64,000 nucleotides of DNA from Eledone cirrhosa (Eukaryota), in the NCBI GenBank assembly GCA_964016885.1, contig OZ024743.1, forward strand, positions 245,272,001 to 245,336,000. The letters run 5' to 3'. Position numbers and translations under genes: made by a program. Shown in pieces: positions 2,200 to 59,229 of the stretch. Position 1 is the first letter of the stretch. Each line of letters begins with the position of its first letter. The notes under the pieces were generated by a model. The model had not been told where the DNA came from and did no database searches. It worked only from the letters and a program-made list of their open reading frames with translations.

Positions 2200-3035
2200 G
2201 CACAAGTGTACCACCATGCATTTTGGAAGGAAAAATCCAGCGTCCACATACTCCCTCCACAACACTGACATCAAAAAGTCCTCTTGTGAACGTGACCTGG
2301 GCATTACTGTCAGCAACGATTTGCGTTGGACAAAGCATGTCTCTAAGATTGTCAAGAAGGCCGAGGGTGTCTTGGCATCACTCAGCAAGACCTTTGTTAG
2401 CCGCTCTCCAGCCATCTATTTAAAACTGTATACAGCTATGGTGCGACCATACTTGGAATTCGCATCATCAGTCTGGAACCCCTATCTTGCTCGGAACATT
2501 GACCTCCTGGAAACTGTTCAGAGACGTGCAACCAAGCGCATACCCTCCATCAGACACCTACCATACTCTGAACGCCTTGCTTCCCTGGGCATGGATTCAT
2601 TGAAGCTCCGACGTCTGGCAATGGACTTGGTGAATACCCACAAAGTTTTTAACCATCTCGCCAACTGCAACCCTGAGCGCCTCTTTGATCTCCATGTGTC
2701 TAACACACGTGGACATGCCTACAAGATAAGAAAACAGCACAGCTCCCATGACTTTCGCTGACATTTTTTCACGCTCAGAGTTGCTGAAGCATGGAACAAA
2801 CTACCTGCGTCAATTGTTAGCTGCCGAGACACTGCATCCTTTAAGACACTCATGCTTCCCGAAATACGCCAAAACTACACCTGATGTGCCCCTTCCATAC
2901 ACATGCACACATGTGTGCACTGTTCATTTTACTGATGTTTGTGCATTGCCCTATGTACTGTACATGCACTTTTTTGATGGGTTGTGGTGCACCTGGGCAC
3001 TGTGCACAATATTTCATTATTGTTATTGTTATTAT
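2200..3035 (+). mobile_element. 5'-truncated CR1-clade LINE
   Basis: ORF 2216-2761 (ERDLGI, RPYLEFASSVWNPY, VQRRATK, TRGH), followed by the 3' UTR hairpin and an (ATT)n tail. Confidence 0.9.
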
Positions 3036-3037
3036 TT

Positions 3038-3167
3038 CATGACTCGTACACTGTTTATTTTCCTGACATTTGTACATTATTCTATGTACTATACATGCAC
3101 CTTTGATGAGTTGTAGTGCACCTGAGCACTGTACACAATAATTTCATTATTATTATTATTATTATTA
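3038..3167 (+). mobile_element. Short CR1 3'-end copy in tandem with the preceding element
   Basis: gatgagttgtagtgcacctgagcactgtacacaataatttc followed by (att)n. Confidence 0.85.
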
Positions 3168-4966
3168 TCTTATGTTGATTCAAGAAAAGAATTACTGCCA
3201 TATTTGTAATTTCTGAATATCTTCAAACTATAACAAATTCTACAGTTTATGTTCTTAATAACTCCATTTGTATGTTACCCTTTTAATACTATGGAAACAA
3301 AACCACCCATTTAAAGGGTTACTATTTAAACTAAAAACTTTTCAACATGTATTTAACCTTTCGTTATGTTAAAATTACCATCATTATGAAATAATAATTT
3401 TAGTAAATCCTTCCAAGTTCTTCATTAATTCCTTTAAATACTGTATTTCATTAGAAATGTGGTAATGGTTAAAATGTCTTTACACTATATGAATATTCAT
3501 CAAATATATAAATTTTAAAAGATATAGTATGTTCACATTTTGTTTGAAAGAAAGCATTGCTAAAACTGAGATTGCTTTTTTGTTTTATAAATCTCTGACT
3601 CCTTGCCAATATAAAGTGGTGGGGGTCATAATTTAAATTTATAATTTTCAAATATTGCTGCATTTCACACTGTCATAGGATTTCATAAAAACCAAGCCTA
3701 TGTTCAGCTAGTACTTCATAGCTACCTTATGTTTATATAATTATAACCTTTAAGTTCTTTTTGTAAATTTAAATAGTAACACAAACCAAAAATTATGGAC
3801 AATAAAGGCACCTATATATATATATAGGGAGAGAGAAAGAGAGATGAACTGGCTAATGTTGCATAACTAGCTCTTGTTTCTTGTCTATATTTCACTCTAG
3901 TTATATTAGTGTGTGAGAAAGAGAGAGTAAAAAAAACACTAATGACAGGAATATCAAAATACATTGTTGTCCAGACTTCTGGTCTATTGTGTTGTCAGTA
4001 GATAACATAACCTTTGTGCTGAGACAAATTGAATAGCTACAATAATTTATTTCTCAATTAGTTTGCTTAATCCTTTTGTCACAATATTTCTAATGAAAAA
4101 CACTTCCTATAATTATCAAATAATTTTTAAAGAAACCAGGAATTTTGGAGTGTTTTAGTAATTAAAATTGCAACACCGTGAAGACAAATATTAGTGATAC
4201 ACTCTAGTTAAATATCTTTGTGTAGAAAATGGTTATTCTCATCTTGAATGCCTATTACTATAGCAACTATTTTTAACTTGTTACTAAATACATGTTGGCA
4301 TAATTGATAGCTCATGTACCTTTATAGACCTTAGTTCTGGAGAATCTCGTTATTCTTATCTATATATATCATACAATTGTAGTGGAACCCAGGTTATGTT
4401 TGTTTCGTTAATATTAGTATTTTTATCTTAAATAAACCAGATATTTTTATATTGTGTCCATACTCATTAGTGCTTGTGTTATCTGATTTAGTCAATAAGT
4501 TTGCTTTCTTTGTACATCTTGATTTTCATTTTCTTTTTCTGTCTCTTTTGTTGTTTTTTTTCCCCCCATTATTTCACACCTGATTTCCATGCTGCCATGG
4601 GTTGGATGGGTTGTTGCAAGCCAAGTTAGTTCTTATTTTGAGTTATTGCCCTCTTAAAGAGGTTCTAGGATCATTCCTCACTCATACATTTGAAATCTTT
4701 CTACAGCTCGATGCCCTCAACACCAACCACTTTACAGAATATACTGGGTACATTTTATTATTGCACCAGCACTAGAGATTGTTATGTCCCTCCTTACATT
4801 GTCTTCAATTGCCAACCACTTTAGAGTGTACAGGGTGCATGGCAAAAGAGTTATCTCTATTCTAATTTTCCATGTGTGTATTCATTTGACAGTTAAACTA
4901 TTTTGAATTGATATAAATTGTGTGCAAGTTTTGTTTAATTCTTAATATTTTTGTTTCTCTTTTCAG

Positions 4967-5160: not shown

Positions 5161-5806
5161 GTATGTACTCTGTAAGTCTACTATAAGGACCAGGCATGCC
5201 ATGGGCACACCCCTTTCCTCCAGAACAGACTAATAATAATAAACATAATACAATCAGCTATTTAATTTATCAAAACATGTCTGAATCTTTAATGTGATTG
5301 TAGTTGACACTATGAAATAGCTCTCCTTATTGGTGCAGACATTTTCTTTAAAACTATTTGTTGTCAAGTTTGATTCAACTGCTTGACACCTTGATGTCTT
5401 CTGTAAACTCATGTCAGCCAATGCTGTGTGTGTGAATTTGTGGAAAGGGACTGTGACAAACTGTCAATGTTCTCTTTGAGTATTCACAGTTGGTCAGTTT
5501 TTTCATCTACTAAATTCATTCACAAGAATAAATTTAGTAGACAGAAATTGTGAATGCTTTGATCAGGATTGACCTGGGGCTACACATCCTTAGCTTGCAA
5601 GTTTTTCAAATGTTTTAGTAGTCATATTCTACAATTTTCTCATTGCTCCAGAAGTATCTTCAAAATACTAATGTATATATCACTCCTCTATTTTATTTAT
5701 AATTACAATGTGGCATGCCTTCTGAATTGAGGTTTTTGTAGGTCCAGTAAATAAGTTGCATGCTGGCATTTCACATTGGATTTTTGTAGAAAAAGATGCA
5801 ACTTAT

Positions 5807-7562
5807 AATAATATAATAATGATGATAATGAAATTGTGTACAGTGCTCAGGTGCACTACAACTCGTCAAAGGTGCATGTATAGTACATACAATAATATAC
5901 AAATGTCAGGGAAGTGAATAGTGTATGAGTCATGATATACATGTGTGTATGTGTATGAAGGGGGAACATTAGGTGTAGTGTTGGCAAATCTGAAGAAGCA
6001 TGGAGGTTTTAAAGGATGCAGTGTCTCGACAGCTAACAACTGATGCAGGTAGTTTGTTCCATGCTTCAGAAACTCTGAGCGTGAAAAAATGTTTCCGAAA
6101 GTCATGGGAGCTGTGCTGTTTTCTGACTTTGTGGACATGTCCATGTGTGTTAGACACATGGAAATCAAAAAAGTACTCAGGCTTGTTGTTGGCAAGATGG
6201 TTAATAATTTTGTGAGTGTTTACCAAGTCAGTTGCCAAACGTTGGAGCTTCAATGTATCCATGCCCAGGGAAGCAAGGCGTTCTGAGTATGGTAGTTTCT
6301 GAACAGTTTCCAGGCGGTCAATGTTCTGAGCAAGATAGTTCTAAGTGTGGCCGCACCATAGCTATATACAGCTTTAAATAGATAGCTGGAGAGCGGCTGA
6401 CAAAGGTCTTGCTGAGCGATGCTAAGATACCCTCGGCCTTCTTGACAATTTTAGAGACGTGCTTCGTCCAATGCAAATCACTGCTGACCGTAATGCCCAG
6501 GCCACGCTCACAAGAAGACTTCTTGATATTAGTGTTGTGGAGTGAGTATGTGGACGCTGGGTTTTTCCTCCCAAAATACATGGTGGTACACTTGTCCACA
6601 GCTAGCTTGAGTTGCCAGTCTGTGATCCATTGTTGCATTGTATCCAGGTCAAATTGCAGGCAAGATCTATAATGTTCAGGATCTGTCCTTTTTATCTCAA
6701 GGTACAGCTTGATGTCATCTGCATATTTCAGTACTGTGGCATTCTTTAAGTTGGCATCTATGTCATTAATATATGCCACAAACAAAAGGGGCCCAAGAAC
6801 AGGTCCCTGTGGTACACCAGATGACATCTCATATGGTGAGGAATGCTGTCCTAGAACCGTGACTACTTCTCTTCGACTGAGAGACTTCAACCAGTTAAAA
6901 AAATCATCCTTCACACCCATTGCAGAGCGTTTTGCCATAAGTCTTTTGTGTGGCACAGAATTGAAAGCTTTAACAAAGTCAAGGTAAACAACATCCACCC
7001 ATGAGCTGCCATCAGTGATCTGGGTGATGTCTTCAAGAAACTCGATAAGTTGATCACAGCAGCTAGAGTTAGGGATAAGACTGTGAGAGTTCCAGAAGTT
7101 CAAAAGCGTTTCTCTAACACAGGATTCCATCAGTTTGGCAATGCAGCTAGTAAGACTGACTGGACAATAGTTCTCAGGTGATGTGCGGTCACCCTTTTTG
7201 AACAGAGGAATGACACTGGCATTTTTCCACTGTTTTGGAGTAGCACCGTTGTTCAGACAGAATTGGAAGAAGCGTAATAGCTGGTGCAGAAGGAAGTACC
7301 CACCACATTTGAGAAGCAGGTACGTAACACCATCAAGACCAGGAGAGGCATGGTTGCGTTTATTGTTAAGGTGACGTCACAGTATTGCAGGTGTAAATTC
7401 CATAGTTGTAATAGAATCCGGTGTCATAGGTGGTGGAGACGGTCTTCAACAGTGAAAACGCCTGCATAGCATTCTGCAATGAGTTCTGCACATTCCTTGG
7501 GGTCGTCAGTAACCTGGCTTGTGTGGGGATTGCGAAGAGGACCAACTGGAGAGTGAGGCCTC
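5807..7562 (-). mobile_element. 5'-truncated CR1-clade LINE with small internal deletions
   Basis: RT ORF 6318-7130 (YLDFVKAFNSVPH, GVPQGPVLGPLLF, YADDIKLY) and an (ATT)n tail at the left end. Confidence 0.92.
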
Positions 7563-8459: not shown

Positions 8460-11400
8460 ATACGGGGTTCTCACTTAAACCTATCCTTCTCGCTAACAAC
8501 TCAACACCCCTCCCTCCCGCCCCCACACACCACCATTATTATTACGTGGACCAATCATAAGCCAGAGGCCTATACTATCGCTTACCTGGTCGCCTTCGAT
8601 ATGTAGGATGGAAGGACTACGGAGTTCCGGAGAGTTGAAGAGAGAAAAATCTGGACGCTCAGCGACAATGCCAAAGTTAAAGACAATCACACCTCGTGGA
8701 CGAGAATGCGAGCATGCCTCTTTGTTTCGGCCGCGGATGGCTAACATAACCCCATCACCCCCCGCTCCCCACCTTTCCAACCCCCCAAACGCAATCCAAA
8801 ACTTCAGATTTGGTACCTTGAATGTAGGCACCTTAAAGGGTCGCTCTAACGAGGTTGTAGAAATGCTTGAACGTAAGGAGGTCGATGTTTGTTGTATTCA
8901 AGAGACCAGGTGGAGGGGTGGATCTGCTAGATACATTGTGGGTAGAAAACGATGCTATAAGCTTTTCTGGGTGGGAAACGACAATGGGCTGGGTGGAGTA
9001 GGAATCATGGTAGCAGAAAAGTGGGCAGATAAGATAATAGACGTAAATAGAGTGAACGACAGAATAATTAAAATACGACTTGTCCTCAATAGAACTACGG
9101 TGACAGTAATATCTGCGTACGCACCCCAATCCGGACTGCCCAGCACTATAAAAGACAGATTCTATGAGACACTGATGCTCACTACCTCCCAAATAACCGA
9201 CAGTGACTATATAATTATTGCAGGCGACCTAAACGGTCACGTTGGACAACATTGTGACGGCTACGACGAAATCCATGGAGGCTATGGGTTTGGTACTAGA
9301 AATGAGGAAGGCTCCAGAATCCTGGAATTCTGCAACGCAAATAACCTAACTATCTGCAACACTAACTTCAAAAAACGAGACAATCACTTGATCACCTACA
9401 GATCAGGGGAACATACTAGCCAGGTAGATTATATCCTTACCAGAAGACGTGACAAAGTGACTGTCGTAAACACTAAATCCCTCCCCCATGAAGAATGCAC
9501 TTCCCAACATACTGATAATTAGCGACCTAATAGTCAGGACGAGACGTACTAGACAACAGAAGAGGACTATCCTCAGGAGAAAAATATGGAAGCTAAAGGA
9601 CCCCACAGCCAAAAATAAATTCCAAAGCATATTACTTGATGCTTTCGACAGTGAGGAAGAGCAATTAGAGACGTACAAGGTAGAGGAACAGTGGGAATTC
9701 CTGAAAGCAAACCTGCTGACGGCGGCAGACGAAGTCTGTGGCTGGAGCAGGCCTGTAGGCAGAAGGAGAGTAACATGGTGGTGGAACAGTAAGGTGGAGG
9801 GGTCAATTAAGGCCAAAAAGCAGGCTTGGAAAGTATGGCGGGATGGGGGAAGCAGAGAAGACTATCAAGTGGCCAGGAAGGAAGCTAGGAGACAAGTGTA
9901 CTTCGCAAGAAGGGAAGCAGAGGAAAGAAAGTTCAAGCATGTTCTACAACGTGAGGACCAAAAACGTGAGGTGTTCAGGATTGCTAGGCAATGTGTCAAG
10001 GAAAACAGTGATATTGTCGGGGAGAAGTGTGTACTTAACGATGACGTCGTACTTGCCATCACCGACGCCGATAAGAAGGTAGCTTGGAAGTGTCACTATG
10101 AAAGGCTACTAAATGAGGAGAATAAATGGGAGAAAGACAGTCTCCCCCACATCGACCCAATAGAGGGACCAGCAGTGTTAGTCGAGGGTAGTATAATAAG
10201 TAAGGCAATCAAAGATATGAAGACAGGCAAGGCGGCTGGGCCTTCGGAAATAGTTGCCGAGATGCTGAAGGCATCTGGTACGGTGGGACACACCATGGTC
10301 ACCCGGATAGTCAACCAAGTCATACAGAATGGGGTTGTTCCGAAGGACTGGCGTAGCAGCATTATTGTTAACTGTTATAAGGGTAAAGGAGATGCCCTAG
10401 ATAGTAGTAACTATAGAGGCATTAAATTAATCGACCAGGTCATGAATGTCACGGAAAAAGTAATAGCGCAACTAATCAGAGAGCGAATTGATCTAGATGA
10501 AATGCAGTTCGGGTTTGTGTCAGGAAAAAGTACCACAGACGCTCTTTTCATTGTACGACAACTACAGGAGAAGTACCTAGCTAAAAGTAAACCCCTATAC
10601 TTAGCTTTCGTCGACTTGGAGAAGGCCTTCGACAGAGTCCCCCGTTCCATTATCTGGTGGGCTCTTAGAAAACTAGGTGTTGATGAATGGCTTGTGAGAG
10701 CTATACAAGCCATGTATAAAGAAACAGTCAGCAAGGTTAGAATTAACAACGAATATAGTGAAGAGTTTAGTGTAAAAGTTGGTGTTCATCAGGGCTCTGT
10801 TCTTAGCCCCCTACTATTTATTATTGCCCTCCAGGCTATAACAGTGGAGTTCAAGACCGGCTGCCCATGGGAACTCCTATACGCAGATGATCTAACGCTC
10901 ATAGCTGAATCAATGGCCGAGCTAGAGAAGAAATTCCAAACATGGAAGCACGGCCTAGAATCAAAAGGCCTTAAAATTAACCTGGCTAAGACTAAAGTTC
11001 TAGTTTGTAAGAAAGAAAATAAGGCGGTGGTCCCCTCCGGGAAGTGGCCATGCGCAGAGTGTAGGAAAGGCGTAGGTAGAAATTCCATTTTGTGTCCCAA
11101 ATGCAAAGTTTGGGTGCATAAAAGATGTAGTGGGATCACAGGTAAGCTAACTAAGAACATAGATTTTACATGTGGCCGGTGTTCTGGGGCAATAAGTAGC
11201 AGCAAGTGCCCACAAAATACTAGATCTTTCAACTGCGCAGAGGGTTCTATAGAAATAGTGGACAGCTTCCGTTACCTGGGTGACAAAATCAGCAGTGGGG
11301 GAGGGTGCTCTGAAAGTACAGTAGCTAGAGTCAGAATTGGGTGGAAAAAGTTCAGAGAGCTTATACCACTATTAGCCGCTAAAGGGTTCTCCCTAAAAAT

Positions 11401-12215
11401 GAAAGGCAGGCTGTACGATGCCTGCATACGAACAGCAATGTTGCATGGCAGTGAGACCTGGGCATTGTGTGCAGAGGATATACGCAGACTAGAGAGAAAC
11501 GAAGCTTGCATGCACCGCTGGATGTGTAATAGTAATATACGTGAACGACAAAGCATAAACGAACTAAGGAAAAAATTAGAAATAAGAGGGATCAGATGTT
11601 GTTTACTAGAGAGAAGGCTACGTTGGTATGGTCACGTGATGCGCATGAAGGACGATAGCTGTATAACAAAGTGCAGGGCAATAAAGATAGACGGTAGCCA
11701 CGGAGTAGGCAGACCCAGAAAAACCTGGGACGAGCTGATAAACTCCGACCTCACACACTTACACCTCACCAAGACAATGTCACTGGACCGAGACCTTTGG
11801 CGGTACTCAGTAATAGAGAAGACCCGCCTTACCTAAATACAAAGTAAAACCTACTACAGTCAGTAGGCATCTCTAACAAAATACACCCCCGTCCCACACC
11901 CTCACCCCATCCACACCGCCCCTTCTATGTAAAGTTATGTTGGTGCCGCGCCATCCAGGCCGAAACAAATGAGATCGTGTAGGTGTCACGACAAAAAAAA
12001 CACACAGTCCACGCTGTAATGTGGCCGTGTAGGCAACACGGTAAAAACCTCCCAGACCCACACTGTAAATGTGGTTGGTGTTAGGAAGGGCATCCAACTG
12101 TAGAAAACCTGCCAGACAGTCCTATGCGAGCAAGACAATCACTCTTGCCTCAAGTGGGAAAACCCCCGTCCAAACCCATGCAAGCGTGGAACACGGACGT
12201 TAAACGTTGATGATG
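8460..12215 (+). mobile_element. Near full-length RTE-clade non-LTR retrotransposon in a Dlic intron (5' end approximate)
   Basis: APE endonuclease ORF 8608-9522 (TLNVGTL, CIQETRW, SAYAPQ, AGDLNGHVG, SQVDYIL). RT ORF 9488-11836 (NYRGI, QFGF, DLEKAFD, GVHQGSVLSPLLF, YADD, RLRWYGHV, GRPRKTW). One frameshift near 9511; (TGA)n tail. Confidence 0.95.
8608..11836 (+). pseudogene. RTE endonuclease-reverse transcriptase ORF, split by a single frameshift
   Basis: Two overlapping ORFs join at ECTSQH/LIISDL into a continuous APE-RT protein of about 1075 aa. Confidence 0.9.
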
Positions 12216-27589: not shown

Positions 27590-28629
27590 TTGGTCCCCTT
27601 TTGTTTGTGGCATATATTGACATAGATGCCAACTTAAAGAAGGCCACGGTACTGAAATATGCAGATGACATCAAGCTGTACCTTGAAATCAAAAGGACAG
27701 ATCCTGAAATCTACAACTCCCTACAATCAGACCTGGACACAATGCAGCAATGGGTCACAGACTGGCAACTGAAGCTGGTTGTGGACAAGTGTACCACCAT
27801 GCATTTTGGAAGGAAAAATCCAGCGTCCACATACTCCCTCCACAACACTGATACCAAGAAGTCCTCTTGTGAACGTGACCTGGGCATTACTGTCAGCAAC
27901 GATTTGCGTTGGACAAAGCATGTCTCTAAGATTGTCAAGAAGGCTGAGGGTGTCTTGGCATCACTCAGCAACACCTTTGTTAGCCGCTCTCCAGCCATCT
28001 ATTTAAAGCTGTATATAGCTATGGTACGACCACACTTGGAATTCGCATCATCAGTCTGGAACCCCTATCTTGCTCAGAACATTGACCTCCTGGAAACTGT
28101 TCAGAGACGTGCAACCAAGCGCATACCCTCCATCAGACACCTACCATACTCTGAATGCCTTGCTTCCCTGGGCATGGATTCATTGAAGCTCCGACGTCTG
28201 GCAATGGACTTGGTAAACGCCCACAAAATTATTAACCATCTCGCCAACAACAACCCTGAGCACCTTTTTGATCTCCATGTGTCTAACACACGTGGACATG
28301 CCTACAAAATCAGAAAACAGCACAGCTCCCATGACTTTCGTAGACATTTTTTCACGTTCAGAGTTGCTGAAGCATGGAACAAACTCCCTGCGTCAGTTGT
28401 TAGCTGCCAAGACACTGCATCCTTTAAAACCCTCATGCTTCCCGAAATTCGCCAAAACTACACCTGATGTACCCCTTCCATACACATGCACACATGTGTA
28501 TATCATGACTCGTGCACTGTTCATTTTCCTGACATTTGTACATTACCCTATGTACTATACATACACTTTTTGATGAGTTGTAGTGCACCTGAGCACTACA
28601 CAATATTTCATTATTATTATTATTATTAT
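27590..28629 (+). mobile_element. 5'-truncated CR1-clade LINE
   Basis: Open ORF 27601-28467 (YADDIKLY...WNKLP), then 3' UTR and (ATT)n tail. Confidence 0.93.
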
Positions 28630-28836
28630 CAAGGGCGGTGGATTGGCAGTATCGGTAGAGGGTCGGACGCCATGCTTTCCAGCATAGTTACGTCCCTTTA
28701 CGATCTGAGTTCAAATCCCGCCGAGGTTGACTTTGCCTTTCATCCTTACGGGGTCGATAAAATAAAGTACCAGTAATGCACTGGGTAATTTCTGGCCTTG
28801 TGCCTAAAGTAGAAACAATTATTATTATTATTATTA
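28630..28836 (+). mobile_element. Young tRNA-derived SINE (second family), inserted in the CR1 (ATT)n tail
   Basis: A box TGGCAGTATCGG, B box GTTCAAATC, central gactttgcctttcatccttacggggtcgataaaataaagtacc and an (ATT)n tail. Confidence 0.85.
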
Positions 28837-36071: not shown

Positions 36072-37110
36072 TACCTGGGCGATAAAATCAGCAGTGGGGG
36101 AGGGTGCTCTGAAAGTACAGTAGCTAGAGTCAGAACTGGTTGGAAAAAGTTCAGAGAGCTTATACCACTATTAGCTGCTAAAGGGTTCTCCCTAAAAATG
36201 AAAGGCAGGTTGTACGATGCTTGCATACGAACAGCAATGTTGCATGGCAGTGAGACCTGGGCATTGTGTGCAGAGGATATACGCAGACTAGAGAGGAATG
36301 AAGCTTGCATGCTCCGCTGGATGTGTAACAGTAATATACGTGAACGGCAAAGCATAAACGAACTAAGGAAAAAATTAGAGATAAGAGGGATCAGATGTTG
36401 TTTACTCGAGAGAAGGCTACGTTGGTATGGACACGTGATGCGCATGAAAGTCGATAGCTGTATAACAAAGTGCAGGGCAATAAAGATAGACGGTAGCCAC
36501 GGAATAGGCAGACCTAGAAAAACCTGGGACGAGCTGATAAACTCCGACCTCACACACTTACACCTCTCCAAGACAATGTCACTGGACCGAGACCTTTGGC
36601 GGTACTCAGTAACAGAGAAGACTCGCCTTACCTAAATACATAGTAAAACCTACTACAACCAGAAGGCATCTCTAACAAAATACACCCCGTCCCACCACCA
36701 CCACCCCCACCCCGTTCTATGTAAAGTTATGTTGGTGCCGCGCCATCCAGGCCGAAACAAATGAGATCGTGTAGGTGTCACGACAAAACACACAGTCCAC
36801 GCTGTAATGTGGCCGTGTAGGCAACACGGTAAAAACCTCCCAGACCCACACTGTAAATGTGGTTGGTGTTAGGAAGGGCATCCAGCTGTAGAAAACCCGC
36901 CAGACAGTCCACGCTGTAATGTGGCCGTGTAGGCAACACGGTAAAAACCTCTCAGTCCACACTGTAAATGTGGTTGGTGTTAGGAAGGGCATCCAGCCGT
37001 AGAAAACCCGCCAGACAGTCCTATGCGAGCAAGACAACCACTCTTGCCTCAAGTGGGACTACCCCCGTCCAAACCCATGCAAGCATGGAACACAGATGTT
37101 GATGATGATG
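36072..37110 (+). mobile_element. 5'-truncated copy of the same RTE family, inserted into an older SINE tail
   Basis: ORF 36198-36635 is nearly identical to the C-terminus of ORF 9488-11836, followed by a (TGA)n tail. The flanks ggaagagcatct|agccatagaaa form a split SINE tail. Confidence 0.93.
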
Positions 37111-41109: not shown

Positions 41110-41290
41110 CAACTCAAGTGGCTAGGCCACACACTTGGACTGGTCCAGATGACATAAAAGGTAGCATTAAGAAGAGACACAACCTAGAAAGGGAAAGCTT
41201 AGGTGGCCAAATCACACCTGGCACAGAACAGTTAGGACGTGATTAGAGAAATGATGCTTACATGGGACAAGGTACAGAGTTGCTAAAGAC
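41110..41290 (+). mobile_element. Decayed LINE C-terminal fragment (RTE-like) that seeds the adjacent minisatellite
   Basis: Translates with frameshifts to QLKWLGHT...VAL...WPNHTWHRT...LTWDKVQ, resembling RWxGHxLR...GRPKxTWRR...GLTWxxAxxxAxDR. Confidence 0.55.
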
Positions 41291-42247
41291 TGGTCTTACA
41301 TGGGACACGGTACAGAAAGTTGCTAAAGACTGGTCTTACATGGGATAAGGTACAGAAAGTTGCTAAAGACTGGTCTTACATGGGACAAGGTACAGAAAGT
41401 TGCTAAAGACTGGTCTTACATGGGACAAGGTACAGAGTTGCTAAAGACTGGTCTTACATGGGACAAGGTACAGAAAGTTGCTAAAGACTGGTCTTACATG
41501 GGACAAGGTACAGAAAGTTGCTAAAGACTGGTCTTACATGGGACAAGGTACAGAAAGTTGCTAAAGACTGGTCTTACATGGGACAAGGTACAGAAAGTTG
41601 CTAAAGACTGGTCTTACATGGGACAAGATACTGAGTTACTAAAGACTGGTCTTACATGGGACAAGGTACTGAGTGTTGCTAAAGACTGGTCTTACATGGG
41701 ACAAGGTACAGAGTTGCTAAAGACTAGTCTTACACGGGGCAGAGTTGCTAAAGACTGGTCTTACATTGGACAAGGTACAGAGTTGCTAAAGACTAGTCTT
41801 ACATGGGACAAGGTACAGAGTTGCTAAAGACTGGTCTTACATGGGACAAGGTACAGAGTTGCTAAAGACTGGTCTTACATGGGACAAGGTACAGAGTTGC
41901 TAAAGACTGGTCTTACATGGGACAAGGTACAGAGTTGCTAAAGACTGGTCTTACATGGGACAAGGTACAGAGTTGCTAAAGACTGGTCTTACATGGGACA
42001 AGGTACAGAGTTGCTAAAGACTGGTCTTACATGGGACAAGGTACAGAGTTGCTAAAGACTGGTCTTACATGGGACAAGGTACAGAGTTGCTAAAGACTGG
42101 TCTTACATGGGACAAGGTACAGAGTGTTGCTAAAGACGGGTCTTACATGGGAAAAGGTACAGAGAGTTATTAAAGACTGGTCTTATATGAGATAAGGTAG
42201 AGAGAGTAGCTAACGATTGGTCTTATATGGGACAAAGTAGAGAGAGT
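41256..42247. repeat. 38/40-bp minisatellite, about 25 copies
   Basis: Unit TGCTAAAGACTGGTCTTACATGGGACAAGGTACAGA(AA)GT. Confidence 0.97.
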
Positions 42248-44149
42248 TAAGGCAGAGTCGTTAAAGACGTTGGATAGAATGTTTTACGGTATTCGTCCCA
42301 CCTCATTGCGTGCTCTCAGTTCAAATCCCCTCATGGTCAACTTTGCCTTTCGAGGTCGATAAAAAAGTACCAGTCCAGTACTGGGGTCGATTCTTCCTCT
42401 ATAGAAAAAATTGGCTGTGTTCAGACCTGGAGAGGTTTGGGCTCCACCAGGTTTAAAAGTGCCCTAGACATGACGTATGATGGTGCCTCTATGACTCCAC
42501 AAGGAGTTATGGGATATTTATCCTTTTTATCCTACAGAGAATTACTAAACACTGGTTTTATATGAGACAAGGTAGAGAGGCAGTTGTTAATGACTGGTCT
42601 TACATGGAGCAACATAGAGTTACTAAAGACTGGTGTCAAATCATTGAATCCTTATTTTTCAACTAAGAAGAAAAAGACTAATAACAATGATAATGATAGA
42701 GCACCAACTTTTAAAATGCTCAACACCATCAGTTTTCCATGTTTTTCCATGCTGGTAATAACTTTTGAGAAATCTAAGCCCAGAGGAAACCCTTCTCATT
42801 TAATCCTTATTTTTTTTTTTTTTTTTAAATAAGGTGCCAATCTTTGCTCATCTAATTGAGAAGTGGGATCTCTGTATATGTGGAACATAAACAAATATCA
42901 CCACCTGTGATGTCAATTTTTAAAGAGTAAGAAAAAGAGACAAATACAGATATACATATGGGCTTCCATGCAGTTTCTGCCTACGAAACTTCACTGCAAA
43001 GTGGGATGGAGCCCAAGGCCACATAGTTGTAATGTGAACATCATAACCACACAGGCTATGCCAGCACCTAGAAATATGACAGCTGTTTGCTAGAAGACTC
43101 ATTCAGAGTGGAACAGTTTAACTCAGTAAAAACCATCTTTCAATAACTTAAGAGCATCACAGATTAGCATTGTGAAATGGAACCTACTTTACATGGAAAT
43201 TCATCAGAGATTCTTAAAGAATCAAAGAAAATTAATACATAATTTGAACTTACATTGACTACTTTACCCAATGTATCCTATTGTATTTTAAGGGAGCATG
43301 GTGTGATATGATGAAGATTTAGCTCATTAACTCTTTTGGTACCAAACCACTAGAAGTTGCTTATGGTTCTATGATACAAAGGTGTTTATATTTATCTAAA
43401 AAATTTCCATCATAATTTTATGTAAGAACCTTTAAGTTATGAAAAAATGAGAAAGTTAGTTACTGAAATTTTTTAAAGTCTTGGTTATTTTCAAAATCAT
43501 TTGAAAATCATAGGCAATGTCTTTCATTAGAAATGTGGCAATGAAAGGGTTAATAATATCGATTTCTTCATTTAAAAAACTTTTTTAGAAGAAAAAGCAA
43601 AGTTGATCCTGGTCATAAAGAGCTGTACCTAAATATCACAAGACATTTTGTTTGGTATTCTATTCATTCTGTTAATCTTCTATGAATCACATTTCTTTAG
43701 ATTGATAGAAATCATGGCTAACATCAATTAACCCTTTAGCATTTACATTACTCTATATATACTATTGTAGTCGAATCTACAAAATTTTTATGTTATTTAT
43801 TTTGAGAACAATACCTTTACATTAGTTTGAGTGGCCAGTTACAGCCAGTTTGAACAGAAAGAGGTGATGGTATTCTGGCTGGATACAGACAATATACAGA
43901 CCTCTCTCAACAAAAATCCAGTGTTTTGTCTGATTTATTTAGATTAGTGTACTCACTTTAGTTGTCCTAAATAAAGAGCTGGAAAAATATTGCATGATGA
44001 ACAATAAGAAATGAGCTGTGTGTTCTCCCCCGGATAATATATATATTCGGGGTCTCAAATTCTTCATATTACCCACTCTACTACACCAAGTATTGAGTAC
44101 TCTAGTGAGTAATTGTCTAACTGGTTTTTACTGCATCCATTCTGATTTA

Positions 44150-46756: not shown

Positions 46757-46966
46757 TATTTTCGTTTTTTCTTTTTTACTTGGACTACCTTTTATTTTCT
46801 GTATCTATTCTTTGTGATCCTGTCTCTATTTTTGTACTCCCGAAGAAGGGCTAAAGCCGGACACATCGAACTTTCTTTCCCCCTTTTCATATAAAGCATG
46901 AAACTAATAAGACTTTTTGTACCTGTTTTGTTGTTTCCTTGAACTATATATATAGTAAATTGATAG

Positions 46967-47248
46967 ATTTGTTAGTCTACTAATGCAGTGTAGTATTTGT
47001 TAGTCTACTAATGCAGTGTAGTATTTGTTAGTCTACTAATGCAGTGTAGTATTTGTTAGTCTACTAATGCAGTGTAGTATTTGTTAGTCTACTAATGCAG
47101 TGTAGTATTTGTTAGTCTACTAATGCAGTGTAGTATTTGTTAGTCTACTAATGCAGTGTAGTATTTGTTAGTCTACTAATGCAGTGTAGTATTTGTTAGT
47201 CTATTAATGCAGTGTAGTATTTGTTAGTCTACTAATGCAGTGTAGTAT
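46967..47248. repeat. 28-bp tandem repeat, about 10 copies
   Basis: Unit ATTTGTTAGTCTACTAATGCAGTGTAGT. Confidence 0.97.
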
Positions 47249-49035
47249 GTTCCAGCTCTCTGCACTCTCAATTCACATCAAAGCCAACTTTGCCTCTCTT
47301 TCCTCCAAAGTTGATAAATAAAGTAGCAGTCCAGGGTAGTGGATTTGTAAAATAAGTAGAGCATCAGACAAGATGCTTTGCATTATCTGTTCTAGCTTCA
47401 AAATAGCTGAAATGTCACCCTACAGTAGATCAAAAATGACTGGGCAGAAAAAAACATCATAATCTTCATCAGTTTTATGTCTATTTTCTACACTGGCATG
47501 GGTTGGATGGATTGTCACATTCTGAGGCTGGTCAGGATAAATGACCATGTTATGTTCATACATTCCATTTTGGTATAGTTTCTATAACTGGATGCCTTCT
47601 CTAATGCCAACCACTTTACAGCATGTACTGAGCACATTTTATCATGGCATCAGCACAACCACCTTACAGCATGTACTGGATGTATTTTATCTTTATACCA
47701 GCATTACCATTTTACAGTGTCTTGGATGTGCCATGAAAACACCAACATCAGACCTACCAAAATTACATACCTCAACTTAACATTCAGCCCACAAGTGACA
47801 TCAGTTTCACAGGGCAGAAGAGCTTCCAGACTCAATGTTACCTCCAGAGCACATGTGAACATATACCTGACACCACTGAATTCTCTCAAAGTTAACAGCA
47901 TCATTGAGATGCAAACTATCCCGTGCTTGCTTACTCATCTGCTGTTATTGTCTTATTACCACCACCATGTGACATGAAACAACCAATAGAGGCCTTAAGC
48001 AACATGCCATTCAACTCCATTCACCATTTTGTTTTTCACTTATTCTCCAATCCATCTGTTTAAGTCTTGATACCACTGGCAATGTGGAGTTAAGTGAAAC
48101 TGTTAATACAAAAACAATCATCATTGTTGCTATCACTTTTTAATGTCTATTTTCCACGCTTGCATGAGTGGGACTATATATGTACCGACACAGAATAGTT
48201 TCTCTCACTATTGAACCTATTAGTGTGCACTCTGCTTTCCTTTTATCTTAATGATGCTGGCTTAATTAAAGCATTAAGCGAGTGAGAAAACAGTCAAAGA
48301 TATATCAGTCCTTCCAATTATATTTGTTAAGCCTTCATTATGTTTATTGATTGGTGATGTATATTTCGCTATTGATCAGCTCAAGGTTCGATCTGTATCG
48401 ATCTGGCCCGATTCTGGAATCAAAAGCTCGTCGGACCTCCCTGGATATGGGGAGTATTTATGACTTAAGAGACATGAGTAAATAACATTTGAAAGGGGGT
48501 GAGGAGTAAAGACTGATTTAGTCAGTTCAATAAATAAACAAATACATAAAACAAACAAAAACCAGATTTTTTTTTTTCAATCATTGAATAGCGACTATTA
48601 TCATTATTATTATTATTAATAGTTTATATATTTATATATAGTCATTGGGGCCTGCTTAATGAGGGGAGGTTCTCCACTACTTATGTACCTCCCCTTATAT
48701 CACAGGTTGTGTCTATCCCTCATATAGGAATGGTTTTACAATTAATTAGTTTTTAGGCCAAATGAATCGAATGAAGAATATCAGAAGAGATATTACAATG
48801 AAAATAATGATACACACACATTTCCAATCAGGATTATTTATCATAGAAGCAACATTTAGTCTTCTGTTGTTGTTGTAGCAGTGGTGGCTTGTAGTTCACC
48901 AGAATTCCAAAGTGTTGGAAGAAGGGAAATATAGTCTGAAATTGAAGATGATATTACAACAAAAACAGAACAGGACTTTTTCTCAGGGATTGAACATAAA
49001 ATAGCAGCAAGCAGAGTGTGGGGTATTGTGAGTAA

Positions 49036-51098
49036 CAGTGTGGTTTAGAGTGATGTGTAATGGTGTACTCTAGTGTGGTGTGTAATGGTGTACTCTAGTG
49101 TGGTGTGTAATGGTGTACTCAAGTTTGGTGTAGTGTCATATAGTGTGGTGTGTAATGGTGTACTCAAGTTTGGTGTAGTGTCATATAGTGTGGTGTGTAA
49201 TGGTGTACTCTAGTGTGGTGTGTCATGGTGTTCTCTAGTGTGGTGTAGTGTAATGGTGTACTCCAGTGTGGTGTGTAATGGTGTACTCAAGTTTGGTGTA
49301 GTGTCATATAGTGTGGTGTGTAATGGTGTACTCTAGTGTGGTGTAGTGTCATATAGTGTGGTGTGTAATGGTGTACTCTAGTGTGGTGTAGTGTCATATA
49401 GTGTGGTGTGTAATGGTGTAGTGTCATATAGTGTGGTGTGTAATGGTGTACTCTAGTGTGGTGTGTCATGGTGTTCTCTAGTGTGGTGTAGTGTCATATA
49501 GTGTGGTGTGTAATGGTGTACTCTAGTGTGGTGTAGTGTCATATAGTGTGGTGTGTAATGGTGTACTCAAGTTTGGTGTAGTGTCATATAGTGTGGTGTG
49601 TAATGGTGTACTCTAGTGTGGTGTAGTGTCATATAGTGTGGTGTGTAATGGTGTACTCTAGTGTGGTGTAGTGTCATATAGTGTGATGTGTAATGGTGTA
49701 CTCTAGTGTGGTGTAGTCTCATATAGTGTGATGTGTAATGGTGTACTCAAGTTTGGTGTAGTGTCATATAGTGTGGTGTGTAATGGTGTACTCTAGTGTG
49801 GTGTAGTGTCATATAGTGTGGTGTGTAATGGTGTACTCTAGTGTGGTGTGTAATGGTGTACTCTAGTGTGGTGTGTCATGGTGTACTCTAGTGTGGTGTA
49901 GTGTGTAATGGTGTACTCTAGTGTGGTGTAGTGTCATATAGTGTGGTGTGTAATGGTGTACTCTAGTGTGGTGTGTCATGGTGTACTCTAGTGTGGTGTA
50001 CTCTAGTGTGGTGTAGTGTATTATAGTGTGGTGTGTAATGGTGTACTCTAGTGTGGTCTAGTGTCATATGGTGTGGTGTGTAATGGTGTACTCTAGTGTG
50101 GTGTGTCATGGTGTTCTCTAGTGTGGTGTAGTGTAATGGTGTACTCAAGTTTGGTGTAGTGTCATATAGTGTGATGTGTAATGGTGTACTCTAGTGTGGT
50201 GTGTAATGGTGTACTCTAGTGTGGTGTGTAATGGTGTACTCTAGTGTGGTGTAGTGTCATATAGTGTGGTGTGTAATGGTGTACTCTAGTGTGGTGTAGT
50301 GTGTAATGGTGTACTCTAGTGTGGTGTAGTGTATTATAGTGTGGTGTGTAATGGTGTACTCTAGTGTGGTGTAGTGTCATATAGTGTGGTGTAATGGTGT
50401 ACTCTAGTGTGGTGTAGTGTCATATAGTGTGGTGTGTAATGGTGTACTCTAGTGTGGTGTAGTGTCATATAGTGTGGTGTGTCATGGTGTACTCTAGTGT
50501 GGTGTGTAATGGTGTACTCTAGTGTGGTGTGTAATGGTGTACTCTAGTGTGGTGTAGTCTCATATAGTGTGATGTGTAATGGTGTACTCTAGTATGTAGT
50601 GTATTATAGTGTGGTGTGTCATGGTGTACTCTAGTGTGGTGTAGTGTCATATAGTGTGATGTGTAATGGTGTACTCTAGTATGGTGTAGTGTATTATAGT
50701 GTGGTGTGTCATGGTGTACTCTAGTGTGATGTGTAATGGTGTACTCTAGTGTGGTGTAGTGTATTATAGTGTGATGTGTAATGGTGTACTCTAGTATGAT
50801 GTGTAATGGTGTACTCTAGTGTGATGTAGTGTCATATAGTGTGATGTGTAATGGTGTAGTGTCATATAGTGTGATGTGTAATGGTGTACTCTAGTGTGGT
50901 GTAGTGTCATATAGTGTGATGTGTAATGGTGTAGTGTCATATAGTGTGATGTGTAATGGTGTACTCTAGTGTGGTGTAGTGTCATATAGTGTGGTGTGTA
51001 ATGGTGTAGGTTAGTGTGCTGTAGTGTACTCTAGTGTGGTTTAGTGTGATGTGTAATTGTGTAGTATTTTGTCGTATAGTGTGATGTGGTGTGATGTA
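49036..51098. repeat. Complex GT-rich satellite built from 5-nt modules
   Basis: Shuffled modules TAGTG, TGGTG, TGTAA, TACTC and TCATA form variable units in 5-nt steps (e.g. 25 and 45 bp). Confidence 0.95.
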
Positions 51099-51221: not shown

Positions 51222-52160
51222 CAGTGTTGTTACTGTCCTCAGTACAACTATAGTGGTCAACAGTGTTGGTACTGTCCTCAGTACAACTATAGTGGTCAAC
51301 ACAGTGTTGTTACTGTCCTCAGTACAACTATAGTGGTCAACAGTGTTGGTACTGTCCTCAGTACAACTATAGTGGTCAACAGTGTTGGTACTGTCCTCAG
51401 TACAACTATAGTGGTCAACAGTGTTGGTACTGTCCTCAGTACAACTATAGTGGTCAACACAGTGTTGTTACTGTCCTCAGTACAACTATAGTGGTCAACA
51501 CAGTGTTGTTACTGTCCTCAGTACAACTATAGTGGTCAACACAACACAGTGTTGTTACTGTCCTCAGTACAACTATAGTGGTCAACACAACACAGTGTTG
51601 TTACTGTCCTTAGTACAACTATAGTGGTCAACACAACACAGTGTTGTTACTGTCCTCAGTACAACTATAGTGGTCAACAGTGTTGGTACTGTCCTCAGTA
51701 CAACTATAGTGGTCAACAGTGTTGGTACTGTCCTCAGTACAACTATAGTGGTCAACACAGTGTTGTTACTGTCCTCAGTACAACTATAGTGGTCAACACA
51801 GTGTTGTTACTGTCCTCAGTACAACTATAGTGGTCAACACAACACAGTGTTGTTACTGTCCTCAGTACAACTATAGTGGTCAACACATCACAGTGTTGTT
51901 ACTGTCCTCAGTACAACTAAAGTGGTCAACACAGTGTTGTTACTGTCCCCAGTAAAACTATACTGGTCAACACAACAGTGTTGGTACTGTCCTCAGTACA
52001 ACTATAGTGGTCAACACAGTGTTGTTACTGTCCTCAGTACAATTATAGTGGTCATCACAACACAGTGTTGGTACTGTCCTCAGTACAACTATAGTGGTCA
52101 TCACAACACAGTGTTAGTACTGTCCTCAGTAGAACTACAGTGGTCAACACATCACAACAT
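51222..52160. repeat. 39/41/46-bp palindromic minisatellite, about 22 copies
   Basis: Unit CAGTGTTG(G/T)TACTGTCCTCAGTACAACTATAGTGGTCAA with variable CA/CAACA additions. Confidence 0.97.
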
Positions 52161-58290: not shown

Positions 58291-59229
58291 TATAATAATG
58301 ATAATAATAATAATGAAATTATTGTGTACAGTGCTCAGGTGCACTACAACTCATCAAAGGTACATGTATAGTACATAGAATAATGTACAAATGTCAGGAA
58401 AGTGAACAGTGTACGAGACATGATATACAGGTGTGTGTGTATGGAGGGGGAATATTAGGTGTAGTGTTGGCGAATCTCAAGGAGCATGGAGGTTTTAAAG
58501 GATGCAGTGTCTCGACAGCTAACAACTGATGCAGGGAGTTTGTTCCATGCTTCAGTAACTCTGAGCGTGAAAAAATGTTTCCGAAAATCATGGGAGCTGT
58601 GCTGTTTTCTGACTTTGTAGGCATGCCCACGTGTGTTAGACACATGGAAATCAAAAAGGTGTTCAGGATTGTTGTTGGCAAGATGGTTAATAATTTTGTG
58701 GGTATTTACCAAGTCAGTTGCCAGATGTTGGAGCTTCAATGTATCCATGCTCAGGGAAGCAAGGCGTTCAGAGTATGGTAGATGCCTGATGGAGGGTATT
58801 CGCTTGGTTGCACATCTCTGAACAGTTTCCAGGAGGTCAGTGTTCTGAGCAAGATAGGGGTTCCAGATTGGTGATGCAAATTCTAAGTGTGGCCGCACCA
58901 TAGCTATATACAGCTTTAAATAGATAGCTGGAGAGTGGCTGACAAAGGTCTTGCTGAGTGATGCTAAGATACCTTCTTGACAATTTTATAGACGTGCTTC
59001 GTCCAACGCAAATCGCTGCTGACAGTAATGCCCAGGTCACGCTCACAAAAAGACTTCTTGATATTAGTGTTGTGGAGGGAATATGTAGACGCTAGGTTTT
59101 TCCTCCCAAAATGCATAGTGGTACACTTGTCCACAGCCAGCTTGAATTGCCAGTCCATGATCCATTGCTGCATTGTGTCCAGGTCTGATTGCAGGAAAGA
59201 TCTATAGTGTTCAGGATCTGTCCTTTTAT
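58291..59229 (-). mobile_element. 5'-truncated CR1-clade LINE in an intron of the minus-strand gene
   Basis: ORFs 58455-58901 and 58964-59173 belong to the same family; (ATT)n tail. Confidence 0.92.

Follow-up and report, generated by a model that had tools for sequence, protein, structure and literature searches.

The window analysed here, a 64-kb stretch of the Eledone cirrhosa genome, contains at positions 2202-3168 a single copy of a LINE that belongs to a young subfamily whose 3' end is doubled, a G-rich inner unit being followed by an A-type terminal unit. The copy lies on the plus strand and begins within the 3' part of ORF2 (2202..2884; stop codon at 2882-2884), the non-LTR retrotransposon being truncated at its 5' end. 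The inner 3' UTR unit (2885..3015) stems from a single-UTR lineage, type B, and keeps B-specific letters. Relative to B- and C-type copies, it has gained G for A at 2888, 2943, 2948, 2960, 2980, 2986, 2996, and 3004; changes at 2915 and 2966 are ambiguous, since C-type copies can carry G there. Its other changes are C to T in a CpG (2936), C to A (2931), one inserted nucleotide, and the loss of 14 bp, and its hairpin (2986-3001) is altered. The inner trinucleotide tail (3016..3033) has A-to-G changes at 3022 and 3028; in earlier subfamily stages this tail is pure and variable in length. The terminal 3' unit (3034..3145), of C-type origin, is almost invariant across the family and has an intact hairpin (3115-3130), and the terminal trinucleotide tail (3146..3168) is the true 3' end of the insertion.

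An earlier note on this DNA had listed ten Gs at which sister copies in the window have A (2937, 2943, 2948, 2960, 2980, 2986, 2996, 3004, 3022, and 3028). All ten are indeed G, and the other window copies do carry A at these sites. To that list can be added A-to-G sites at 2888, 2915, and 2966 and one inside the 14-bp segment deleted in this copy. One of the supposed sister copies, at 3038-3167, is in fact the terminal unit of the same element: in 30 of 30 fetched loci, sequence matching 2885-3035 runs on directly into an A-type terminal unit.

Relatives of the element lie elsewhere in the window. A B-type single-UTR copy (27615..28629, plus strand) represents the predecessor lineage and has A at the changed sites, and behind it lies a companion SINE with the same type of tail (28634..28828, plus strand). 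This SINE is often inserted in the trinucleotide tails of this LINE, the inner tail included (L155, L314, and the window copy at 28634-28828), and hyper-edited members of its family at other loci bear the independent ADAR-like footprints described below. An older C-type copy (58291..59195, minus strand) serves as an outgroup and belongs to the type that gave rise to the terminal unit, while an older D-type copy (5800..6780, minus strand) is inverted 2.6 kb from the focal copy. The window also contains two long ORFs of 304 and 782 aa, probably another LINE (8608-11836, plus strand), with a related piece near 36072-36571, as well as minisatellites at 41238-42657, 46911-47302, 48994-51000, and 51222-52151, with periods of about 38-40, 28, 45, and 39-41 bp.

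A full relative of the element (L185) has an open ORF2 of 957 aa with endonuclease and reverse transcriptase domains and an ORF1 of 476 aa with a cysteine-rich start; a search of this ORF1 against Pfam for a PHD or esterase domain gave no match above the cut-off. The ORF2 domains, 5' truncation, and a simple-repeat tail are features of an APE-type non-LTR element. Named relatives of the reverse transcriptase are bird, turtle, and Hydra proteins that lack clade labels and that we take to be CR1, and a CR1 label is plausible from these sequence matches. Terminal, B, and C units all retain the hairpin, and by likeness to the LINE ZfL2 (PMC4176376) the terminal one may be the signal recognized by ORF2p. 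Two copies (L129 and L160) of another repeat, whose trinucleotide tail is long, bear the same terminal unit and are possibly a second chimeric family mobilized by this 3' end. In run X4, organism B has a homogeneous family (compared with L185:4900-5670) with mid-stage ORF2 letters and no inner unit, the end of the ORF being joined directly to a terminal-type unit, possibly through a secondary loss of the inner unit.

The Gs are widely shared. A search of 2885-3035 against its own genome gave 829 candidates, and the 40 matches that were scored were all 100% identical. Two patterns diagnostic of the doubled 3' end matched 1,298 and 1,454 places, and the window's states at 2980 and 3004 occurred jointly in 22 of 90 pattern-sampled copies. 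Tallies leave out 25 duplicate loci, an array (L031), repeats of other loci (L262, L266, and L271), and four loci that were misaligned or without a unit (L114, L156, L072, and L085). Because the Gs are common to copies of the subfamily, the cluster is a subfamily mark and is not private to this insertion. The earlier note had proposed that an edited RNA templated this very insertion and had itself named a common subfamily state as evidence to the contrary; such a state is what was found, and private hyper-editing of this copy is ruled out by the identity of the sequence at all 40 loci that were scored. Contigs of run X1, which is possibly, though not necessarily, independent of this assembly, span the inner unit at high depth, with G at the equivalent of 2980 in about 12% of the depth, so a family-wide assembly artifact is unlikely. 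One contig of run X5 also has the G-rich unit. Arrays of 3' UTR units occur too: one comprises about 12 tandem units with mixed A and G states (L031; G000:C27:8066680-8069805), and another is smaller (L381).

The direction of change is A to G, as evidenced by A at the changed sites in B-type (28) and C-type (30) copies. Type B is near-ancestral: across 1,530 ORF2 sites, the path to the youngest subfamily has 40 changes and that to B has 3. An ancestral G is thereby excluded, except at 2937 and possibly at 2915 and 2966. At 2937, 20 of 28 B-type copies have CG and 29 of 30 C-type copies have A. The CA-to-TG difference at 2936-2937 does fit an A-to-G change followed by CpG decay, as had been suggested, but the G at 2937 predates the cluster and its direction is unrooted. 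CpG decay as the cause of the whole cluster was rejected, as it fits only 2936 and possibly 2915. The sense-strand G-to-A changes expected of APOBEC-type DNA editing were not found, two outgroup lineages giving A to G.

In the source lineage, the inner unit together with its tail gained 11 unambiguous A-to-G changes at 43 As (13 if ambiguous sites are counted) and no T-to-C change at 63 Ts (11 versus 0, p=5e-5), and the gains are confined to this unit. For shared derived transitions, 13 of 37 A sites changed versus 0 of 51 T sites (p=3e-6). Equally frequent T-to-C clusters, which the note had named as contrary evidence, are absent from the source lineage, but private clusters, discussed below, occur on both strands and to that extent count against an editing origin. 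The changed As also have distinctive neighbors. The reported 5'-T bias holds, with T upstream of 9 of 12 changed versus 5 of 25 unchanged As (p=0.003), and G lies downstream of 3 of 12 changed and 0 of 25 unchanged As (p=0.03). A preference for 5' U or A and 3' G has been reported for metazoan ADAR sites (PMC9989829). Two sites, 2980 and 2996, changed despite a disfavored 5' G.

The timing of the changes was examined with a tree of 165 copies based on ORF2 only, with CpG columns masked and many nodes weakly supported. It forms a ladder from B through early doubled copies to the gain of the tail Gs, then 3004, then 2980 and 2888, and then the 14-bp deletion. The Gs thus arose in source elements, through one burst followed by further steps, and not at this insertion as first supposed. 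Of 348 matches, the first 100 were scored at 2943, 2948, and 2960: the three sites were A throughout in 56 and G throughout in 41, two were G in 3, and no match had a single G. The terminal unit was present in 0 of 20 fetched all-A copies, and an unedited doubled ancestor was found neither among these 20 nor among the pure-tail doubled copies examined. Between 9 pre-burst single-UTR copies and 17 early doubled copies, there were 0 fixed differences over 1,548 ORF2 sites; 3 majority differences separate pre- and post-burst ORF2, and all were polymorphic before the burst. The burst itself, which dates to the founding of the subfamily, comprises 5 to 7 A-to-G changes inside 82 nt, at 5 to 7 of 19 As versus 0 of 62 other bases, and may have taken a few quick rounds.

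Some copies depart from the ladder. Four (L281, L166, L151, and L152) have partial, non-nested sets of A and G states, indicating some recombination, conversion, or reversion as well. G-rich inner units also end at their own tail in L312, L326, and L114, so priming at the inner tail happens; in L318, the unit is interrupted by another insertion. L312, which is G rich and single-ended, nests inside the doubled family, and this position suggests priming at the inner tail.

A possible RNA substrate emerges from structure prediction. The pre-burst UTR (L292) is predicted to fold into an imperfect rod of 38 pairs (-33.1 kcal/mol; z -3.43; 0 of 200 shuffles better, for a fold window picked after the fold was seen), which covers the burst sites, 2980, and 3004. 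The corresponding z is -1.95 for the window's B copy, -0.1 to -0.7 for terminal, C, and D units, and -0.7 and -1.1 for post-burst units. A rod in the pre-burst UTR, and not in the terminal unit, would explain why the inner unit was hit and the terminal one was not. Predicted local pairing did not separate changed from unchanged As (p 0.16-0.70), the whole doubled UTR folded no better than shuffles, and a search of a full element (L207) for a long inverted partner of the UTR found none. Pairing with a nearby inverted copy, of which the window has one 2.6 kb away, or with an antisense RNA is possible.

Similar clusters occur at other loci, all of them found by targeted patterns or by eye, so that they give no estimate of frequency. 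A copy of the youngest subfamily (L382) differs from L010 at 8 places in 1,090 nt, and 7 of these are private A-to-G changes inside 46 nt of the terminal unit, ending before the terminal hairpin, which is spared. A companion SINE between the two units in L314 has 7 A-to-G and 0 T-to-C changes. In L371 and L359, an inverted SINE pair (at about 2300-2620) within a 1.1-kb host repeat has A-to-G changes on both arms and on one strand, the host strand being inferred from the host's simple-repeat tail. The sense arm was changed at 17 of 26 As in L371 and 12 of 27 in L359 versus 0 of 16 and 0 of 15 in the respective loops. The two loci share some changes, L371 having more; its predicted hairpin reaches -162.7 kcal/mol, and the pair shows the clearest ADAR-like footprint. 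Three alternating SINE copies in L360 also have A-to-G changes on one strand, and in L378 (G000:C17:14633544-14633804) inverted SINEs about 240 bp apart each have the same double A-to-G change on their own strand. Across 11 clustered SINE loci, which were selected once they had been inspected and are in part dependent on one another, changed As favored 5' A and U and 3' G, in line with metazoan ADAR sites (PMC9989829); the 5' neighbors scored A 0.38, U 0.37, G 0.20, and C 0.14, with 5' C thus lower than 5' G, and the 3' neighbors G 0.44 and U 0.13.

Taken together, sequence comparison shows the G cluster to be an inherited subfamily mark, which was likely left by ADAR editing of source-element RNA, with inosine fixed as G by reverse transcription. 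The idea that ADAR-edited LINE RNA was copied into heritable DNA, first raised from this copy, is thus supported more strongly than by the window alone. The genome has ADAR genes, with matches to PF02137 on C6, C1, and C25, and an exon on C6 is 95% identical to Octopus vulgaris ADAR2. A search of RNA runs for the element found none that contains it. The process might have run as follows. The 3' UTR RNA of the predecessor would fold into the predicted imperfect rod, which spans most changed sites, and an enzyme that was presumably ADAR would edit the rod in the RNA of a source element. Reverse transcription of inosine gives G, and the element's own reverse transcriptase would in this way have fixed the edits in DNA. 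Before or after the editing, an older subfamily may have supplied a second 3' end, itself unedited, by tail insertion or a template switch; this terminal end would serve as the recognition signal, and the edited inner unit would be carried along free of selection. Later source elements would have added further edits, and all of this would have to take place in the germ line, as inheritance requires. Editing is rare at any one insertion, yet edits build up because source elements go through an RNA stage again and again.

The alternatives must account for a burst of one type of change and for spared loops, which relaxed selection, reverse transcriptase error, or selection alone do not supply. 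First, ordinary mutation, or an A-to-G bias of a polymerase or of the reverse transcriptase, may have altered an inner unit that drifted after the terminal unit had taken its place. Release of this unit from selection is plausible, and ORF2 on the same lineage gained 13 A-to-G and 4 T-to-C changes when nonsynonymous ones are included. Synonymous ORF2 transitions on the same path are even, however (A to G, 5 of 106; T to C, 4 of 165; C to T, 5 of 179; G to A, 5 of 79), and A-to-G changes in the inner unit exceed those at synonymous ORF2 As (p=5e-4 for 11 of 43; p=6e-5 for 13 of 43). Relaxed selection should also raise all changes, yet other transitions amount to 1 of 119 in the inner unit versus 14 of 423 in the synonymous ORF2 comparison, and the remaining substitutions of the unit are one C to T in a CpG and one C to A.

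Private changes bear on this reading from both sides. In 172 doubled copies they are strand symmetric, with A to G at 83 of 57,267 and T to C at 72 of 59,146 (p=0.30), a symmetry that fits drift and speaks against editing; their commonest classes, C to T and G to A, speak against drift. A scan of the same 172 copies, with tails outside its range, found none with at least three private A-to-G changes in 100 nt, and the terminal unit alone had 10 A-to-G and 5 T-to-C private changes (p=0.07). Drift would account neither for 5 to 7 changes in 82 nt with no fixed change in ORF2 nor for arm-only changes in hairpins, and we regard it as unlikely.

Second, the Gs may have arisen by ordinary mutation and been selected among source elements, for they could make the rod less stable, eliminate UpA or AU-rich signals, or prevent priming from the inner tail. 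The rod is indeed weaker after the burst, and inner priming happens (L312, L326, and L114), so tail Gs could reduce it. Nevertheless, T-to-C and C-to-T changes and transversions would serve equally and are nearly absent, and selection does not supply several changes at once. Selection in place of editing thus seems quite improbable, though it may have acted on top of editing.

Third, adenine may have been deaminated in DNA, either on the cDNA strand of an RNA:DNA hybrid or at the source locus itself, within an R-loop. In model substrates, DNA:RNA heteroduplexes can serve as targets of ADARs (PMC12925331), and the mirror image of the A-to-G pattern, T-to-C clusters, does exist. Among the LINE copies, a mirror test returned one A-to-G cluster (L382) and one T-to-C cluster (L385). 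Among SINEs T to C is the more frequent: the mirror pattern matched 32 places (23 with one array collapsed), 14 of which had further T-to-C changes versus 1 of 40 for A to G, and in fetched loci 8 to 20 T-to-C changes were present in 12 of 19 mirror loci and a large A-to-G cluster in 1 of 30. A second site-pair pattern gave 3 matches and has no bearing on strand asymmetry. In 154 unselected SINE copies there was likewise no A-to-G excess (48 A to G, 74 T to C). At L359, L371, L365, and L360, the T-to-C changes read as A to G on the strand of the host element.

No host element was evident for the heavy T-to-C clusters of L361 and L385. On the basis of the tail-bearing strand, these lie at about 2300-2900 in L361 and about 1366-1593 in L385 (element orientation), and those of L361 seem to reach into flanking trinucleotide repeats. 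Such host-less clusters fit a cDNA-strand event and leave room for either cDNA-strand deamination or an unrecognized passenger RNA. For the window, though, a cDNA-strand event would yield T to C on the sense strand, not A to G, and a hybrid would not spare the loops of L371 and L359, which point to double-stranded RNA rather than RNA:DNA hybrid. DNA deamination is therefore a very unlikely origin of the Gs described here.

Fourth, the inner unit could have come from a G-rich relative outside the sample, through recombination or conversion. The element is already chimeric, non-nested states occur, and 2915 and 2966 could derive from C-type sequence. Against such a donor, the inner unit keeps its B-specific letters and differs almost only by A to G, the later gains are stepwise, and a search with the G-rich unit gave family members only among the 40 scored matches; we consider this highly improbable. 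Finally, hyper-editing of the RNA that templated this very insertion is hardly conceivable with the same sequence at all 40 scored loci, even though the cluster and its context are real and private events are known elsewhere (L382).

A broader proposal can be advanced only tentatively. ADAR may be a germline mutagen of octopus retrotransposons, whose hyper-editing of a self-folding 3' UTR would have crippled the recognition signal of a source element; the lineage would have escaped by capturing a 3' end that does not fold and would then have become a dominant young subfamily. LINEs, SINEs, and passenger RNAs might together hold a fossil record of such editing. Editing of repeat RNA in coleoids has been proposed as a transposon defense (PMC9068888). 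Speaking against the editing explanation, ADAR1 in cultured cells did not edit human L1 RNA (PMC5224506).

A full-text literature search, covering few subscription journals, returned no paper in which genomic copies of non-LTR elements inherit ADAR-type clusters, and the accessible part of a review of editing and retrotransposons contains no such case (PMC5974252). In another study, an excess of G alleles at edited sites was read as adaptive, and a higher A-to-G mutation rate was considered an unknown mechanism (PMC7186786). If our reading is true, the Eledone LINE provides direct genomic evidence that A-to-I edits have been made heritable by retrotransposition in an animal germ line. The action of ADAR on transposon RNA in germ cells, and editing as a driver of transposon sequence evolution, become testable from assemblies alone. 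Coleoid cephalopods are the lineage best known for RNA editing. A caution applies, as genomic repeat copies with editing-like Gs can mimic RNA editing when reads are mis-mapped.

The Eledone LINE invites comparison with several known systems. UnaL2 is a stringent LINE with a 3' stem-loop recognized by ORF2p. ZfL2, also stringent, shares with the Eledone element a 3' hairpin before a short tandem tail, an ORF2 with endonuclease and reverse transcriptase, and a companion SINE; its stem-loop is recognized by ORF2p (PMC4176376), as that of the Eledone LINE may be. Literature search results on stringent LINEs contained no 3' end that is doubled and has an edited inner unit. ADAR editing of repeat RNA in coleoids (PMC9068888) and metazoans (PMC9989829) involves the same enzyme family, repeat targets, and a neighbor preference, but as described there it consists of differences between RNA and DNA, while the Eledone signature is in the DNA itself.

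Among retroviruses, the avian isolates RAV and ALV have, within an inverted repeat region, ADAR-like clusters that were carried through reverse transcription (PMC12925331). These are virus isolates, in contrast to an endogenous non-LTR lineage with serial, inherited gains. A further parallel is APOBEC-edited endogenous retroelements (PMC4866542, PMC2873906), in which deaminase clusters were likewise fixed in germline copies by reverse transcription and in which strand bias and a neighbor motif served as tests. The available text of an APOBEC screen of LTR elements describes only G-to-A and C-to-T changes as notable, with invertebrates at noise level (PMC4866542). In the APOBEC system, deamination of cDNA produces G-to-A changes in vertebrate LTR elements (PMC4866542, PMC2873906). 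The Eledone case differs in being A to G, probably at the RNA level, in a non-LTR element of an octopod, and inherited by a subfamily of more than 1,000 copies; if true, it would be the RNA-level counterpart of APOBEC-edited endogenous retroviruses.
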